Part shown: piece after piece, positions 1,142 through 22,641 of the stretch
Layout of the letters: every line of letters starts with the position of its first letter
Position numbering within the stretch: position 1 is the first letter of the stretch
Source: Candidatus Bathyarchaeota archaeon
GTDB taxonomy: Archaea > Thermoproteota > Bathyarchaeia > TCS64
NCBI GenBank assembly: GCA_043826455.1
Contig: JBDRQD010000071.1
Span: forward strand, 1 to 22,921
Length of the DNA: 22,921 bases
Direction: 5' to 3'
The notes under the pieces: generated by a model
What the model saw: the letters and a program-made list of their open reading frames with translations, nothing else
Databases searched by the model: none
What the model was told of the DNA's origin: nothing
Position numbers and translations under genes: made by a program

Positions 1142-2398
1142 TTGGACGCGAACGTCATCGTAATCCTCGTATCCCTCGCCCTGTTCTTGGCCTACGTCAG
1201 CGGCGTAATATTCACCCACACGGGGGTCCCGGACACCGTGTGGCTGATAGGGTTTGGCGTCCTCTTCGGGCCGGTCATGAACCTGTTCAACGCTGACCTC
1301 CTGAGGCCCATGGCCCCCATCCTGGTGCTGATGGCGTTGAACCTGCTCATGTTCGAGGCTGGCATGAACCTGGACCTCAAGACATTCAAGGAGACCATGC
1401 GGAAGTCCAGCGCCTTGGCGGCCTGTACATTTCTCCTCACCACGGCGTCGGTGGGGTACCTCCTGCACTACATCATGCCTCAGTACTTCAACTACACGCA
1501 GGCGCTCCTGTTCGGTGCCATGATCGGCGGCACCAGCACCTCCACGGTTCTGGGAATCCTTGGCAGCATGCAGAGGTACAGCTCAAACATAGGGGACACC
1601 CGGAGGTTCCTGGTGCTGGAGTCCATCGTGTCTGACAGCCTCTGCATCGTCACCGCCATGACCCTCATGCGCATCATACTGTCGCCCAGTATCCCCCTCA
1701 ATGACGGAATTAAGGACATCGTCTTCGTCTTCACGGTCTCCATATTCATAGGGTTCTGTGTGGGGGTACTCTGGGTCCAGATACTGGACCTCGTCAAGAA
1801 CAGGCCCTTCAACTACATAATGACCATCGCGGCCCTCTTCGTCGCCTACATTGTGAGCGAGGAGATGGGGGGCCCCGGCGCCGGGAGCATAGCCGCCCTG
1901 GCCTTCGGTATTACCCTCACCAACTACCCGCTCCTAGCCAAGCGTTTCGGGCTCCGGGAGAACGTTCGGGTGGAGATGAGGCGGCTGAGGTCCTTCCACG
2001 AGGAGATCACATTCCTCGTCAAGTCCTTCCTGTTCCTCTTCGTGGGGCTGGAGATCACCTTGAACGCCGAGTACCTCTTCCTCGGGCTGGGCATCACGGC
2101 CCTCATAGGAGCGGTGAGAGTAGTGTCCGTGTACATCACGGACTCCATTGTGGACATAAGTGATCTGGAGGTCAGGGTCTCACGACTGATATTCAGCAAC
2201 GGGTTGACCGCCCTCGTCATATCCCAGCTCCCCCTGGTCATAGAGATGCCGCACATGTATTTCCCGGACCCCAAGATATACGTGGACTTGGCTGTCCCCA
2301 TAGTCATGGCCACATCCATGTTCGGTTCCCTGTTCGGCCCGCTGTTTCTGGGGAAGAAGGCCGCCCCTGAGGCCAAGCCCGAGCCGGCCACAGGATAG
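1142..2398 (+). CDS. Cation:proton antiporter (CPA1/NhaP-like)
   Basis: 418-aa polytopic membrane protein with a TTG start. Motifs: GVPD..WLI.FG...GP, LMFEAG, LESIVSD, FH.EITFLVKSF.F.FVG. Confidence 0.88.
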   Translation: MDANVIVILVSLALFLAYVSGVIFTHTGVPDTVWLIGFGVLFGPVMNLFNADLLRPMAPILVLMALNLLMFEAGMNLDLKTFKETMRKSSALAACTFLLTTASVGYLLHYIMPQYFNYTQALLFGAMIGGTSTSTVLGILGSMQRYSSNIGDTRRFLVLESIVSDSLCIVTAMTLMRIILSPSIPLNDGIKDIVFVFTVSIFIGFCVGVLWVQILDLVKNRPFNYIMTIAALFVAYIVSEEMGGPGAGSIAALAFGITLTNYPLLAKRFGLRENVRVEMRRLRSFHEEITFLVKSFLFLFVGLEITLNAEYLFLGLGITALIGAVRVVSVYITDSIVDISDLEVRVSRLIFSNGLTALVISQLPLVIEMPHMYFPDPKIYVDLAVPIVMATSMFGSLFGPLFLGKKAAPEAKPEPATG

Positions 2399-2438
2399 TA
2401 GGTTTCTTATCTCACACAGCCAGACAGTATTGATCTTC

Positions 2439-3650
2439 ATGGCTGACACTGATAGCCTCAAGAAAAGCGTCCAGATGGAAGTGGACGCCCTGATGCCCCA
2501 GCTGAAGAAGCTGAAGGACGATATTGGAGAGAACCCTGAGCTCGGAAGCGAGGAGCACAAGTCCAGCAAGCTCCTGGTGGAGGAGCTGAGGAGACACGGG
2601 TTCAAGGTGGAGCACCCCTTCTGCGAGATGGACACTGCCTTCAAGGCGGTCTACAAGGGTAAAAGAGGGGGACCCGTCATCGCCATCCTGTGCGAGTACG
2701 ACGCCCTCCCGGGCGTAGGCCACGGCTGCGGCCACAACATAATCGGGACAGCCGGGGTTGGAGCCGGTATAGCGGTGAGCAAACTCATGAAGGACCTGCC
2801 TGGGGAGATATGGGTCGTGGGCACGCCCGCCGAGGAGGGCCACGGCCCCTACGGCGGAGCCAAGGTCAGGATGGTGAACGCTGGCGTCTTCGAGGACGTG
2901 GACGTCAGCTACATGATCCACCCCATGACGGGGACTTCCATGGTGACGGGTAACTTCCTGGCCGTCTCAGGGGTAGAGATAGTGTTCAAGGGTAAGACGG
3001 CTCACGCGGCGGCGGATGCCCACAACGGTTTGAACGCCCTCAACGCGGCCGTCCTAACCTACATGGCCATCCACGCCAACAGGCAGCAGCTCCGCCGCGA
3101 CGCCAACGCCGTGGTACACGGCATCATCACGGAGGGGGGTCTGGCAAGCAACATCATCCCCGATAGGGCGGCCCTCAGATTCGGGGTGAGGAGTAGCGAC
3201 ACCAGCTACGTGCCCACCCTGGTGGAGATGGTGGTGAACAGCGCCAGGGGCGCGGCCATAGCGACGGGGTGCACCATGGAGCACACGGTGTCCACGGGGC
3301 TGAAGTCCAACCTCCATAACAAGAAGCTGGAGAGCCTCTACACGGAGGCCTTCGACGATCTGGGCCACGAGTACAGGGACCCCGTTGAGGTTGCAGTCAT
3401 GCCCCCCGGGGGGAGCACAGACTTCGCGGACGTGACCCACGTGGTACCGGGTATTCACCCCATGGTGGGGATAACCCAGGAGGAGATGACTATGCACAGC
3501 AGGGAGTTCGCAGCGGCCACAATGACCCCGGGCGGGGACAAGGGTCTGGAGATTGGCGCCAAGGCCATGGCTATGGTCACGGTGGAGATACTGACAATAC
3601 CCGGGCTGCTGGCGGAGATCAAGAAGGAGTTCGAGGAGAGGCGCCTCTAA
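2439..3650 (+). CDS. M20 metallopeptidase/amidohydrolase (ACY1L2/PM20D2/AbgB-like)
   Basis: Motifs ENPELGSEE, EYDALPG.GHGCGHN, GTPAEEG, MIHP, GKTAHAA, GSTDFADV, H.REFA. The ATG at 2439 is preferred over the TTG at 2430. Confidence 0.92.
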   Translation: MADTDSLKKSVQMEVDALMPQLKKLKDDIGENPELGSEEHKSSKLLVEELRRHGFKVEHPFCEMDTAFKAVYKGKRGGPVIAILCEYDALPGVGHGCGHNIIGTAGVGAGIAVSKLMKDLPGEIWVVGTPAEEGHGPYGGAKVRMVNAGVFEDVDVSYMIHPMTGTSMVTGNFLAVSGVEIVFKGKTAHAAADAHNGLNALNAAVLTYMAIHANRQQLRRDANAVVHGIITEGGLASNIIPDRAALRFGVRSSDTSYVPTLVEMVVNSARGAAIATGCTMEHTVSTGLKSNLHNKKLESLYTEAFDDLGHEYRDPVEVAVMPPGGSTDFADVTHVVPGIHPMVGITQEEMTMHSREFAAATMTPGGDKGLEIGAKAMAMVTVEILTIPGLLAEIKKEFEERRL

Positions 3651-6521: not shown

Positions 6522-6529
6522 CATAATCT

Positions 6530-6540
6530 ATTCTTTTTTC
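6530..6540 (+). terminator. Probable archaeal oligo-T terminator of rbr
   Basis: ATTCTTTTTTC immediately after the rbr stop codon. Confidence 0.5.
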
Positions 6541-6554
6541 ATTATATGCAAGAG

Positions 6555-6904
6555 CCACTGATACGCGGAAGCATCTCACCGAAGTAAAAGCATGAAGTAT
6601 AAGATGGAATTTTTTTCCGCCTTATACCCTCTAGGACGGTATAAGCCACCAGGCTGAAAACGATACACACGCTATCCACCCGGTAGACCCGAGGGGGGAG
6701 GGGGGGTAGAGCAAGAAAAACCAGAAACAGGTACCCCGCGCCAAAAGGAGCCACAGAACCGGTCCGATGCGATCCCATTCTATGCAAAAACGTCGTCCAT
6801 TCCACACAGAAACACGGTCTATTCAGCACATAAAACACGGCGCAGAGTAAGCGACCTGATGTGCAAAAAAGGTAGGGAGGTATCAATTATTGGAGAATTT
6901 TTCA
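6555..6904 (-). repeat. Dispersed non-coding repeat element, copy A (reverse complement of ~22133-22478)
   Basis: Manual alignment: 6770-6819 matches 22218-22267 at 47/50 and 6611-6645 matches 22395-22429 at 34/35. The G-string 6691-6714 matches the C-string 22323-22344, and 6856-6884 matches 22154-22183. All blocks are collinear. Boundaries are approximate. Confidence 0.9.
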
Positions 6905-7042
6905 CCCATAAAGGGAAACCCACCCAGCGAGGGCCACTCGGCTGACCATGACACCAAACCCGGAACAGAGGCCTCCAATCCTCTACAATCTTGGCTACTA
7001 CCCAAGGCTTCAGGGGCCCGCTATCAAACATGTGAGTTGACT

Positions 7043-7061
7043 AAAAACAATCCAAAAAAAA
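7043..7061 (-). terminator. Probable oligo-T terminator of ileS
   Basis: The minus strand reads TTTTTTTTGGATTGTTTTT about 45 bp after the ileS stop. Confidence 0.5.
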
Positions 7062-7106
7062 GTATGACCGGCCACTGTCATCCCCGGCCCGGAGAAGAGG
7101 ATGAGG

Positions 7107-12880: not shown

Positions 12881-12884
12881 GCCC

Positions 12885-12900
12885 ATTTTTTATATTTTTT
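12885..12900 (+). terminator. Oligo-T terminator after the aminotransferase
   Basis: ATTTTTTATATTTTTT directly after the stop codon. Confidence 0.55.
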
Positions 12901-13105
12901 AAATACAAAATTCATTAAAACCTAGATATCCAATTTCAAATATGCTAAAATCGATTACAGTGACCGGGTTACACTTAGCTCGGTGAATTGTTTGAAGTTC
13001 AGCCAGGAAAGGCCGAGAGCGAAGGGTGTCACCAGGAAGAAAGACAAACTGGATACAGCATCAAAAAAAGCTTTCCCATTAACGAGACACCGGGAACGAC
13101 CTGAC

Positions 13106-13942
13106 TTGGATAAAAAACCAAGAGTCACCCGCCTCAGGGACAACCCCGACTACAAAGACCTACTCCAAATATGGCCAAAGATAGTCGAATACATAGGCCT
13201 CAGCGAGTACGAGTCCAAAGTATACCTAAGCCTAATAAACCTAGGAACAGCAGGCGCCCGCAAACTAAGCCTCAACTGCGACGTCCCAAGAACTAAAGTA
13301 TACGGAACCCTCAAGAAGCTCATAGACTACGGCCTCGTCGTAGAGATACCAGGCCACCCCAAACAATTCGCCCCCTCCAACCCAGGGGAGTCCTTCAACA
13401 CCATCCTCAACATCACCAAGGAGAAGGCCACAGACTTCGACAACATCATCAAGAAACTGGACGAGGTCCACGAGAAACGCAAAGAGATACTAGGCCCCGA
13501 GAAAAAACTCATCTGGTTCCTGAACAAGGAGCACAACATCAAAGGCAAGTGCAACGAGATCATCCGCCAATCCGAGGAGGAGCTCAACATCCTCACCACC
13601 GAGGACGGCCTCGAGATCCTCTTCAACGCCGCCCACCGCCTCCTAGACGAGATGCTGGAGAGCGGCGTCGAGATAAAGCTCTACAGCCCCCTAGACCCCA
13701 AGGTGAACCCCCTGGCACGGGAACTAAGCTACATATACCAAGTCAAACAGGTGGAGATGGAGACCCCCATACTCTTCATCAACAGCGACAACAAGCGCTT
13801 CATCCTAGCCAAACTGGCCCCCAGAGGAGCAGAGAAGCCTATAGAGTCAGCCATGTTCACCGAGGACAAGGACCTCCTGGACCTGGTCCACCTCCTCCTC
13901 GTGGACGGCCAGAAACAGCTCCTGAAAACCATGCAAGCCTAG
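13106..13942 (+). CDS. TrmB-family transcriptional regulator
   Basis: GLSEYESKVYLSL...VPRTKVYGTLKKL.DYGLV winged HTH plus a C-terminal PLD-like effector domain (I.QSEEEL.I ... I.SDNK). The ORF is open from 12983, but the in-frame TTG at 13106 is the more plausible start. Confidence 0.88.
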   Translation: MDKKPRVTRLRDNPDYKDLLQIWPKIVEYIGLSEYESKVYLSLINLGTAGARKLSLNCDVPRTKVYGTLKKLIDYGLVVEIPGHPKQFAPSNPGESFNTILNITKEKATDFDNIIKKLDEVHEKRKEILGPEKKLIWFLNKEHNIKGKCNEIIRQSEEELNILTTEDGLEILFNAAHRLLDEMLESGVEIKLYSPLDPKVNPLARELSYIYQVKQVEMETPILFINSDNKRFILAKLAPRGAEKPIESAMFTEDKDLLDLVHLLLVDGQKQLLKTMQA

Positions 13943-13952
13943 GGGACCCACC

Positions 13953-14432
13953 TTGAGCCCGAACCAGGGGGACCCGGAAATAGCCCAGATCATAGAAAGC
14001 CTCGGACAGGGACCAAAGGTGATGCTCATCCAGGTAGACGGCACAGACATCAAGGAGAAGCTCACCCAGACCAACCTCCACGTATGCACCCAGACCCTGG
14101 ACAGCCTCCTCACCCTGGACGAGGCCAGGTTCACCGAGAAGCTCATGGATAAAGACGTCATCCTCTTCACAAGGCTCCAGAAAGGCTGCAGGCTCCTAGA
14201 CAAGGTGACCAGACAAGTCATCGAAAGCCACCTGGGACGAACAGGGGCCACCCTACTATCCCAGCTGCAGAACCACGAGAAAGGCCCCCTCAGCCACCAC
14301 CACCTTATGACCAGGCTCGAAGCCACCATAGGCTCAGGGGCAGGAGCCATCCGGCGAGCCGTTGCCAAGGCCCTCTACCACGAGCTCAGGTCAAACCCAG
14401 GAGCACTACAGAATTGCGCAACGACAGAGTAG
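13953..14432 (+). CDS. Hypothetical protein with a C-terminal helical domain resembling DUF3227-type archaeal signalling-associated domains
   Basis: 159 aa, sandwiched in an operon-like arrangement between trmB and the kaiC-like gene. The C-terminus LEATIGSGAGAIRRAVAKALY resembles the 'L..ifG.GA..I...i.k.LY' pattern. The family call is from recall only. Confidence 0.55.
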   Translation: MSPNQGDPEIAQIIESLGQGPKVMLIQVDGTDIKEKLTQTNLHVCTQTLDSLLTLDEARFTEKLMDKDVILFTRLQKGCRLLDKVTRQVIESHLGRTGATLLSQLQNHEKGPLSHHHLMTRLEATIGSGAGAIRRAVAKALYHELRSNPGALQNCATTE

Positions 14433-15829
14433 AGACCGGAATAACACACCTGGACGCCGCCCTCCAGGGCGGGCTCCCTCGAGGCAGCCTCACCCTAGTC
14501 GCCGGCAACCCCGGCACAGGGAAAACCATCCTATGCGGAGAGTTCCTCCACAAAGGCGCCTCCTGCGGCGAGAGCTGCCTCTACGTGAGCCTCAGCGAGG
14601 GAAGAGACAGCTTCCTGGAGTACATGGGACGCCTGGGCCGCGACTTCACTGACCCCCAGACCCGGAGCCACCTGGACATTCTTGATCTGGTCTCCGTCAA
14701 GGAGGAGGGCCTGGACATCCTCATGGAGATGATCATCACCCGCGTGGACACCCAGCGGGTCCAACGACTGGTCGTAGACAGCTTCACGGCCCTCAGCAAC
14801 GCCCTCACCGCCTCCATAGACGCCAGAGTCACCCTCCACATCCTCAGCAAGATCCTGGGCCAGGCCACCTGCACCACACTGCTCGTCACCGAGGTCCCCA
14901 CAGGCACCAGCCGGCTCGGCATGGGCGTCGAGGAGTTCGTCGCCGACGGCATCATAAGCCTCCGCCGCAGGGTGGTCAACGGCTCCACCCTCAGGGAGCT
15001 GGAGATAACCAAGATGAGAGGCACCCTGGTGGAGAGGCCCCTCCACCTCTTCACCCTCCACGGGGGCTTCAACGCCTTACCCCCCTTCCAGCCGGCGGAG
15101 ATCAGCCAGCCCAGGCCCTACACGCCCAGGCCCGACAGAGAAGACACCTACAGCACCGGCAACCAGCAGCTGGACACCCTCACAGGGGGCCTGAGGCGGG
15201 GGGACACCGTCTACGTGGATATGGGGGATAGCGTCCCCCCCATGGTGCCCGCCCTCCTGGTGGGGCCCCTCCGCTCAAACTTCCTCGCCCAGGGCCGGGG
15301 CGTCCTCTTCATGCCTCCCGGCGGCGAGAACCTGGACAGGATCCACAGGTTCGACCAGCAGTTCGCCCTAGGGCCCAGGGCAGCCAAGCTGGTCCGGATC
15401 GCCACCGCCCCCAACAACCAGGGAGGCCGCCCACCGGAGCTCGCCCTGGACCCCAGGGACCCCGACGCCGCCCTGCGGGCCTGGGCCGACTCCGAGGAGG
15501 AGCTCAGCAGAGAGACCGGCGGCCCCCTCCTGAAGATAATATACGTGGACAGCCTCCGGACATGCCTGCCCCACGCTGACCACAGAAGGTTCCTAGACCA
15601 CCAGTCCATGAGGGCTAGGGACGCGGGGGGCCTCCTGGTCCTCCTGTCCAGACCTGGGGACGATCACCTGAGGCAGCACGCCGGCAACCTGGCCCACACC
15701 CACCTGCAGGTCACAAACCATGAGGGAGTAATGCTGCTGCAGGGAGTCAAGCCGAGGACCCCCCTCCACGCAGTGGCTCAGGACCCGGCCCAGGGCCACC
15801 CGTCCCTCAGCCTGACACCCATCTACTAG
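14414..15829 (+). CDS. KaiC/RAD55-family ATPase with a degenerate second (GvpD-like) RecA domain
   Basis: N-domain: TGI..LD..L.GGLP.GS..LVAGNPGTGKT, YVSLSE, LVVDS, EEFVADGII.L, LEITKMRG. C-domain starts STGN..LD.L.GGL..G but has no GxxGxGKT. Confidence 0.88.
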   Translation: MRNDRVETGITHLDAALQGGLPRGSLTLVAGNPGTGKTILCGEFLHKGASCGESCLYVSLSEGRDSFLEYMGRLGRDFTDPQTRSHLDILDLVSVKEEGLDILMEMIITRVDTQRVQRLVVDSFTALSNALTASIDARVTLHILSKILGQATCTTLLVTEVPTGTSRLGMGVEEFVADGIISLRRRVVNGSTLRELEITKMRGTLVERPLHLFTLHGGFNALPPFQPAEISQPRPYTPRPDREDTYSTGNQQLDTLTGGLRRGDTVYVDMGDSVPPMVPALLVGPLRSNFLAQGRGVLFMPPGGENLDRIHRFDQQFALGPRAAKLVRIATAPNNQGGRPPELALDPRDPDAALRAWADSEEELSRETGGPLLKIIYVDSLRTCLPHADHRRFLDHQSMRARDAGGLLVLLSRPGDDHLRQHAGNLAHTHLQVTNHEGVMLLQGVKPRTPLHAVAQDPAQGHPSLSLTPIY

Positions 15830-22051: not shown

Positions 22052-22074
22052 CCCACCCTAATTGATCCAGAGGG

Positions 22075-22088
22075 TTTTGTTTTTCTTT
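22075..22088 (+). terminator. Oligo-T terminator after ssb
   Basis: TTTTGTTTTTCTTT about 25 bp after the stop codon. Confidence 0.5.
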
Positions 22089-22132
22089 GGTTTGGCAGCG
22101 GGTCTTGCCTGAGCTGGTGTCCCGTCTAATAA

Positions 22133-22478
22133 TGAAAATATTCTCCATTATACGATACCCCCCTACCTTTTTTTACACATCAGCCGCTAAATGGCGCTAT
22201 TCCTGATGCGTTAAAATGACCGTGTTTCTGTGTGGAATGGACGGCGTTTCTGCATAGAATGGAATCGATAAGGAGCGTTTCCAGGCCTCCTTTCTGCGTG
22301 GGGAGGCCGTTTCAGGTTCACATTGCTCTACCCCCTCCCCCCTCTATGGGGCAGAGTGCTGGCGTGTAGGATGATACGTGTATAGCCTAGTGTCCTTATA
22401 CCGTTCTAGAGGGTATAAGGCGGAAAAAATCTCCTACTTCACGCTTTCCCTTCGGCGAGACACCTCCTCGTCCTCGCT
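22133..22478 (+). repeat. Dispersed non-coding repeat element, copy B
   Basis: Collinear diverged match to the reverse complement of ~6555-6904 (see copy A). Contains the palindrome CCTTATACC-N9-GGTATAAGG at 22394-22420. Confidence 0.9.
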
Positions 22479-22641
22479 CATGAGCCGGGAAAACATGGAA
22501 AATCGTAGTCCTCTTGAGATTTACACCAAGCCCAAATCATTGACCAGGAAAACCTGATTTTCTGAGAACCACAACATTAACCTTAAAAATGCTTATTCTA
22601 GCCACAAGAAACAAGCTCTGGAACCCAAGAGATAAAGAGGG

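Follow-up and report, generated by a model that had tools for sequence, protein, structure and literature searches.

A modular repeat family in a Bathyarchaeota genome: very probable MITEs with IS5-type ends

Two intergenic gaps of the window, i.e., the 22,921-nucleotide stretch of Candidatus Bathyarchaeota DNA analysed here, each harbour one copy of a repeat that, judging from its DNA, is very probably a MITE, in which IS5-type inverted ends enclose non-coding modules and which would represent a new, large and modular family. This identification is based on TIRs, on TSDs, on the comparison of an empty with a filled site and on ends that match those of an IS5-family element. As a MITE, the element is ordinary in kind; it is the particular family that is new, and a literature search found neither the repeat family nor its IS5 partner in print. 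The genome carrying the window (G000) is represented by an assembly of 2.95 Mb, and its relatives are labelled here G006 to G070. Genes were called with a home-made hexamer model, so starts and short genes are approximate.

A preliminary description of the window had claimed two homologous elements in opposite orientation, and both copies were recovered by BLAST (73.7% identity over 353 bp, E = 5e-48). The gaps in which they lie (585 and 590 bp) are indeed the longest two between called genes of the window, and a 50-bp block with 47/50 identical positions and an A-tract/palindrome block with 34/35 were both reproduced exactly. It was also borne out that the copies have no common reading frame, the longest stop-free frames being of 95 and 114 codons in copy 1 and of at most 49 codons in copy 2. 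The location initially given for the copies was correct and only their extent was too narrow: copy 2, complete from the left to the right TIR, spans 444 bp (22070–22513, reverse strand) and has no intact target duplication (flanks TCAA and TGGA), and copy 1 (6522–6983, forward strand) has a degenerate left end, so that its start is approximate, and a right-end remnant at 6975–6983.

The element is organised as a left TIR, about 90 bp, a T-tract with palindrome 1, a G-string, a 150-bp core, one to three 93-bp units and a right TIR. In copy 2, on the reverse strand throughout, the partly degenerate left TIR (22498–22513) is followed by the T-tract and palindrome 1 (22395–22429; 8-bp arms and a 9-bp spacer, with two covarying alleles), the G-string G6AG5 that opens the core module (22331–22342), the most conserved 50-bp core block (22218–22267), which has TIR-less homologues genus-wide, the 3' unit (22125–22183) and the right TIR (22070–22085). 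The corresponding parts of copy 1, on the forward strand, are the T-tract and palindrome 1 at 6611–6645 (the palindrome itself at 6621–6645), a G6AG7 string at 6693–6706, the 50-bp core block at 6770–6819 and the 3' unit at 6856–6914. Each 93-bp unit consists of an anchor and an imperfect palindrome, repeated with a spacing of 92–98 bp (76 bp in one case); in copy 2 an A-tract/G-tract anchor (22154–22183) precedes a palindrome of about 11+6+11 bp with approximate bounds, and in copy 1 the anchor covers 6856–6884 and the end of the palindrome is approximate. The TIRs are about 16 bp long, and 14 of 59 loci, window copy 2 among them, have two recognisable ends. Variants keeping both ends measure about 110, 270, 420–460, 530–545 and 630–657 bp, and left-left composites of the element also occur. 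Two of the latter are inverted (L063:100-520 and L064:2660-3080), and in L063 the flanks too are inverted duplicates, a fold-back that is possibly an artefact of assembly or amplification. In contig C60 of G000 (29507–32275), the left end of one copy is interrupted by about 2.8 kb of DNA that includes two genes and has a short direct repeat where it joins the copy; G029 lacks this insert.

The claim that the two copies belong to a genome-wide family proved right. An HMM of the family, built from 34 near-full copies, gave 79 hits in 59 loci of G000 and none in the reversed genome; the true number of loci is somewhat below 59, because several of them are halves at contig ends. With 19.7 kb of 2.95 Mb, the family makes up about 0.7% of the genome; it breaks assemblies and is apparently located at rearrangement points. 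No overlap with called genes is found at 54 of the 59 loci, and the remaining five overlap weak calls only. Pairwise identity among 33 copies ranges from 66 to 94% (median 76%) and reaches at least 90% in only 2 of 528 pairs, which argues against a recent burst. Related genomes were matched in 18 of 61 cases, with near-full-length copies mainly in G029 and G013, and the ends-only form matches 9 of 401 genomes of the class. Exact-pattern scans yielded nine loci in metagenomes, all of them non-autonomous forms, eleven in a genome collection, ten without a core-HMM match, and three in viruses, none with such a match. Two candidate members (L037 and L113) were discarded as chance matches within genes. 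A 270-bp copy (L131) comes from a record presented as a bacterial MAG, and its contig may have been mis-binned.

Insertion is documented by the flanks. Among the 14 bounded copies of G000, six have exact 4-bp TSDs and a seventh has one of 5 bp, and permutation of the flanks gave a mean of 0.42 exact 4-bp TSDs, with six or more in 0 of 10,000 permutations. The other seven bounded copies carry no duplication, and neither window copy retains one. Outside G000, a TSD is present in four of eight bounded copies, two of these being orthologous to G000 sites. Contig C16 of G000 contains a single TATA, and the filled counterpart in G029 contains TATA joined to the left end and the right end joined to TATA; the two flanks of this filled site are on different contigs, which implies that recombination or mis-assembly is involved. 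Similarly, a G013 copy (L040) has a 5-bp duplication, and the same site is empty in G000 (C75). TIRs together with 4-bp TSDs point to DDE chemistry.

The likely source of this chemistry was found with a 16-mer pattern made only from the MITE ends, which was run over 71 genomes of the archaeal family and led to the retrieval of 20 matching regions. Among the matches listed, exact inverted 16-mer pairs 1,236 bp apart flank a transposase in G070, similar pairs exist in G015, G006 and G021, and the 20 regions include five complete ISs of 1,179–1,236 bp (L174, L175, L176, L184 and L185) and two partial ones. All four of the four proteins match the IS5 family transposase model NF033581 (transpos_IS5_4) with 215–234 bits, against a cut-off of 140, and their domains are DUF772 (PF05598) and DDE_Tnp_1 (PF01609); 4-bp TSDs were observed in two of four IS copies. 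The consensus left end of the MITE resembles the IRL of this IS over about 26 bp, and a similar resemblance, of about 19 bp, links its right end to the IRR, so that the asymmetry of the ends is retained. The preliminary description had recognised no IS-end type in the element, a statement that these IS5-family ends overturn; they agree instead with one of the roles it had listed, that of a non-autonomous mobile element. The MITE thus has the same IRL and IRR and the same 4-bp duplication as the IS5-family IS of this archaeal family, but lacks a transposase. No interior homology between the two was detected (best core-HMM match, E = 0.12), which indicates that the element is no simple internal deletion of these ISs.

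The partner transposase was matched in 28 of the 71 genomes. In G000 it is represented by two fragments only, both on contig C32, one of which retains its IRL; G029, G013, G008 and G019 gave no match. An intact cognate transposase was thus not seen in any of these five assemblies, which are incomplete and which contain the best copies of the element. A search inside G000 for an autonomous partner, with HMMs of the ends and de novo TIR pairs, likewise recovered no intact element. Five DDE_Tnp_1 ORFs of G000 were rejected as partners, their ends being different wherever ends are visible, and the search for other transposase domains in five genomes gave one sub-cut-off match to PF13751 and none to PF13546. 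The element would likely have spread through an IS5-family transposase acting in trans, and it is presumably immobile at present, because only a broken transposase remains in the G000 assembly. G026, G015 and G025 contain a sister MITE of 100 bp (seven copies in six regions, L177–L182), which shares the IS5 TIRs and has a different interior, and 4-bp duplications accompany five of these seven copies.

Archaeal MITEs in which only the ends resemble the partner are described as common (PMC3852290). Those related to ISMma12, ISMac15, ISMba19 and ISMbu10 share 15–17 bp TIRs with their IS5-family elements, lack an ORF, reach tens of copies and have a similarity to the partner that is confined to the ends; the present element is larger than these four (mostly 420–660 vs. 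140–252 bp; PMC3852290). It also differs from archaeal IS5-family MITEs in its variable number of tandem palindromic units, in an interior that is common to TIR-less host repeats and in the exchange of blocks between copies.

These peculiarities reside in the interior. Elsewhere in the genus and family, genomes also contain the core, palindrome 1 and the 3' units alone or reordered, without termini, and the modules accordingly look older, by sequence comparison, than the TIR-bounded form; the interior may have been captured from an older TIR-less host repeat system. When the alleles of five blocks were compared in 33 copies, all four combinations were observed in eight of ten block pairs, the two exceptions being adjacent blocks. 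Four full-length orthologous pairs of G000 and G029 are only 74–84% identical, with allele swaps, and two 270-bp orthologous pairs are 92–93% identical; for whole loci the identity is 86–93%. The site of copy 1 is occupied in G029 too, with different module alleles, and several copies in relatives join flanks that lie apart in G000. From these patterns we infer recombination between copies, which apparently now evolve mainly through block exchange; gene conversion would account for both the mosaicism and the flank swaps, and homoplasy could contribute to the four-allele result, mis-assembly being likewise a candidate. The preliminary description had reported conserved blocks between diverged spacers and concluded that the blocks are under selection. 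The pattern holds, and the conclusion is weakened, because block-wise exchange between copies can yield the same pattern. Streptococcal BOX elements are likewise mosaics of palindromic units, with a bias towards convergent gene ends and an association with recombination. BIME/REP sequences are also alike in their mosaic arrays of palindromic units, their bias towards convergent gene ends and their tie to recombination (PMC3184786, PMC3733652). Unlike BOX and BIME/REP, the present element is bounded by DDE-type TIRs and TSDs, has no G-U bias and has no link to a RAYT that we could find in G000. Three features are left unexplained by the MITE model: the paired palindromes, the TIR-less core present throughout the genus and a weak downstream strand skew.

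The skew brings in a second modular repeat system, consisting of modules B, C and D, as opposed to the MITE, denoted here as family A. In G000 it occupies 71 loci (e.g., C74:2207-2618 and C60:1431-1581; 55 hits for the C module), often beside tRNA genes, module B being a C7TC6 string with a long inverted repeat. It heads islands of about 1–2 kb in which one strand is rich in A+C: at fourfold sites, A+C amounts to 0.96 and 0.83 within 150 bp, vs. 0.58 and 0.42, and fades over about 2 kb. The G6AG7 string is common to the second system and to family A, with opposite relation to the skew, and G-strings outside both families show little skew (0 to −0.07, 33 sites). One copy of the second system is situated just downstream of a cdc6-wHTH operon. 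In the window, a degenerate family-C module (7030–7085, PWM score 10.8) lies between copy 1 and ileS, a possible C/D-type remnant was noticed by eye only at about 22560–22630, between copy 2 and the amidohydrolase gene, and relatives have a C module at both sites without family A. A further island (12881–15500, +0.37 declining to about 0 over 2.5 kb) starts at an AT-rich gap before a TrmB-family gene, where no module of families A, B, C or D was detected. In the ileS orthologues of six genus members (L151–L155 and L157), fourfold G+T is 0.69–0.88 across the 3' half, and repeat-like sequence downstream of these genes suggests further skew-heading modules.

A related gradient was encountered within the ISs. 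In the five copies of the partner IS (L174, L175, L176, L184 and L185), fourfold A+C passes from 0.81 at the IRL to 0.15 at the IRR, and in five other DDE_Tnp_1 genes (L031–L034 and L073) it drops by 0.34–0.58 from the first to the last third, compared with 0.05 ± 0.12 in 440 ordinary genes, with the caveat that related ISs are not independent. G+T predominates on the strand whose 3' end lies at the terminus, as would be expected from deamination of resected 3' tails, and the inward gradient from both IS ends suggests that the skew process is a mutation process tied to DNA ends. This inward gradient in the IS5-type transposase genes of the lineage is a new observation, and the literature search returned nothing relevant on such skew effects. 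By linking the skew islands to DNA ends it makes the mechanism testable, and it is a more useful result than the MITE itself.

Other explanations of the element were weighed against this background. That each copy encodes a structured non-coding RNA, a role that had been put forward initially, is highly improbable. Palindrome 1 is 95% paired, with a covariation of 0.109 vs. 0.026 when shuffled, the 3' units contain 379 Watson-Crick cells of 552 vs. 270 when permuted (for the 46 of 62 unique units that stay in register), and the fold of copy 2 has a z of −2.1 on one strand; however, the palindrome covariation rests on few inherited alleles and G.T pairs do not exceed A.C pairs (9 vs. 17; 43 vs. 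59), and covariation lacking strand bias fits symmetric double-stranded DNA sites or self-correcting palindromes. Moreover, Rfam returned three matches at E = 0.26–0.48, none on either copy, the consensus fold of the alignment is merely −14.15 kcal/mol with an unfavourable covariation term, and the mean fold z over 24 copies is −0.93 and −1.01 on the two strands, so that the long stable RNA stem-loop that is common but not obligatory in MITEs is not seen either. An RNA would also leave the TIRs and TSDs unexplained. In the two RNA runs inspected, the organism is barely represented, by short low-depth contigs that speak neither for nor against a transcript. A replication origin or initiator-loading site of the ORB/G-string type, also proposed at first, is extremely improbable: haloarchaeal ORBs do end in G-strings (PMC3528665) and the element has one, but here GGAAAC follows the G-string, opposite to the ORB-like order described in that source. 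The single Cdc6_C match of the genome (C60, gene 1920–3092) has an upstream gap of 87 bp and its nearest HMM-detected copy about 29 kb away, the skew does not change sign across copies, and the copies are dispensable, being present or absent between relatives; an ORB-like pattern had 0 matches in the window, a weak test given that only 0.06 were expected. Very slight, too, is the probability of a CRISPR leader with mini-arrays or of a REP/BIME moved by an HUH (RAYT) transposase. The tandem 93-bp units with their constant anchor, and GT(A/G)G near the foot of the unit hairpin, as in the GTAG REPs of PMC3733652, speak for it; against it, a handful of palindrome types recur in the variable parts, where a CRISPR array would have unique spacers, no cas1 was found in G000, the lone Y1_Tnp match of G000 is on a contig without a copy (C11), and the TSDs and TIRs indicate the DDE chemistry already mentioned. 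The TSDs, the palindrome types and the missing cas1 largely refute this reading.

A different case is the notion, compatible with the MITE explanation and not exclusive of it, that the IS5 ends are a vehicle and the interior consists of functional polar chromosome sites, with a G-string and palindromes that would be bound by protein, at which exposure of one strand as ssDNA or recombination starts; the MITE would then spread mutator/recombination hotspots. We consider this unlikely. It draws on the presence of the core, the palindrome and the 3' units in TIR-less form, alone or reordered, in the genus and family, on palindrome arms that covary as double-stranded DNA sites would, and on the skew: over 1 kb downstream of family A, in 51 loci free of other detected modules, A+C at fourfold sites is in excess by +0.068 (orientation-flip test, P = 0.001), declining from 0.08 to 0.02–0.03. 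Several TIR-less relatives show +0.2 to +0.37 downstream, and in all seven cases where a copy lies no more than 3 kb from the second repeat system, the two have the same orientation. On the other hand, filled and other alleles at eight loci show no significant shift (114 vs. 92 downstream), the three cleanest pairs giving 32/29, 6/11 and 9/12; downstream skew is absent at copy 2; the excess in distant relatives is restricted to same-strand genes (+0.2 vs. +0.01 to +0.04, with baselines borrowed from G000); and an excess of about +0.03 over 3 kb on both sides fits oriented insertion into DNA already skewed. The skew beside copy 1 exists also in G008 and G013, where there is a family-C module and no family-A copy, and since a degenerate family-C module separates copy 1 from ileS, the footprint there was not accepted as proof of a family-A effect. 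The palindromes and the G-string may bear a resemblance to dif, attC, KOPS, Chi and mitochondrial CSB II. It is rather unlikely that IS5 ends captured polar modules that start one-strand exposure and carried them to about 50 new places as a mobile recombination or mutator hotspot, with a process of this lineage, acting at DNA ends and at such modules, that would leave long 3' single-stranded tails, which gain C>T and A>G changes over 1–2 kb and invade sister copies. If true, mosaicism of the interior, swapped flanks, skew islands and the gradient inside the ISs would all go back to this single mechanism. That the captured modules act on the chromosome at all is likewise held to be a minor possibility; should they start the skew process, the element would be a mobile mutator or recombination hotspot.

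The gene content of the window is archaeal. A rubrerythrin gene and ileS flank copy 1 with their convergent 3' ends, and copy 2 has an Ssb-like OB-fold gene on one side and an amidohydrolase gene on the other. Genes are present on either side of 51 loci, 18 of which lie in convergent, 28 in co-directional and 5 in divergent gaps, i.e., an enrichment in convergent gaps (OR 3.3, P = 2e-4) and an OR of 0.4 for divergent ones (P = 0.055), relative to gaps of any length. A cassette-like array in G000 (C31:7327-9576; also L021 and L118) consists of two antitoxin-like + PIN gene pairs interspersed with modules; since it occupies the same locus in G013, it counts as one event. Of the 22 PIN genes, four have a copy no farther than 500 bp away, vs. 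3.9% of all genes (P = 0.01). Mobile insertion cassettes are known in which unrelated DNA is moved by IS ends in trans. In the MITE-bounded integron mobilisation unit treated in PMC3184786, too, IS ends move unrelated DNA in trans, as proposed here; unlike in such MITE-bounded cargo units, the usual cargo of the present element is non-coding. Transport of cargo can only be presumed for the C31 structure, as no TIRs were identified around it. In G013, a HEPN/nucleotidyltransferase pair adjoins the PIN array.
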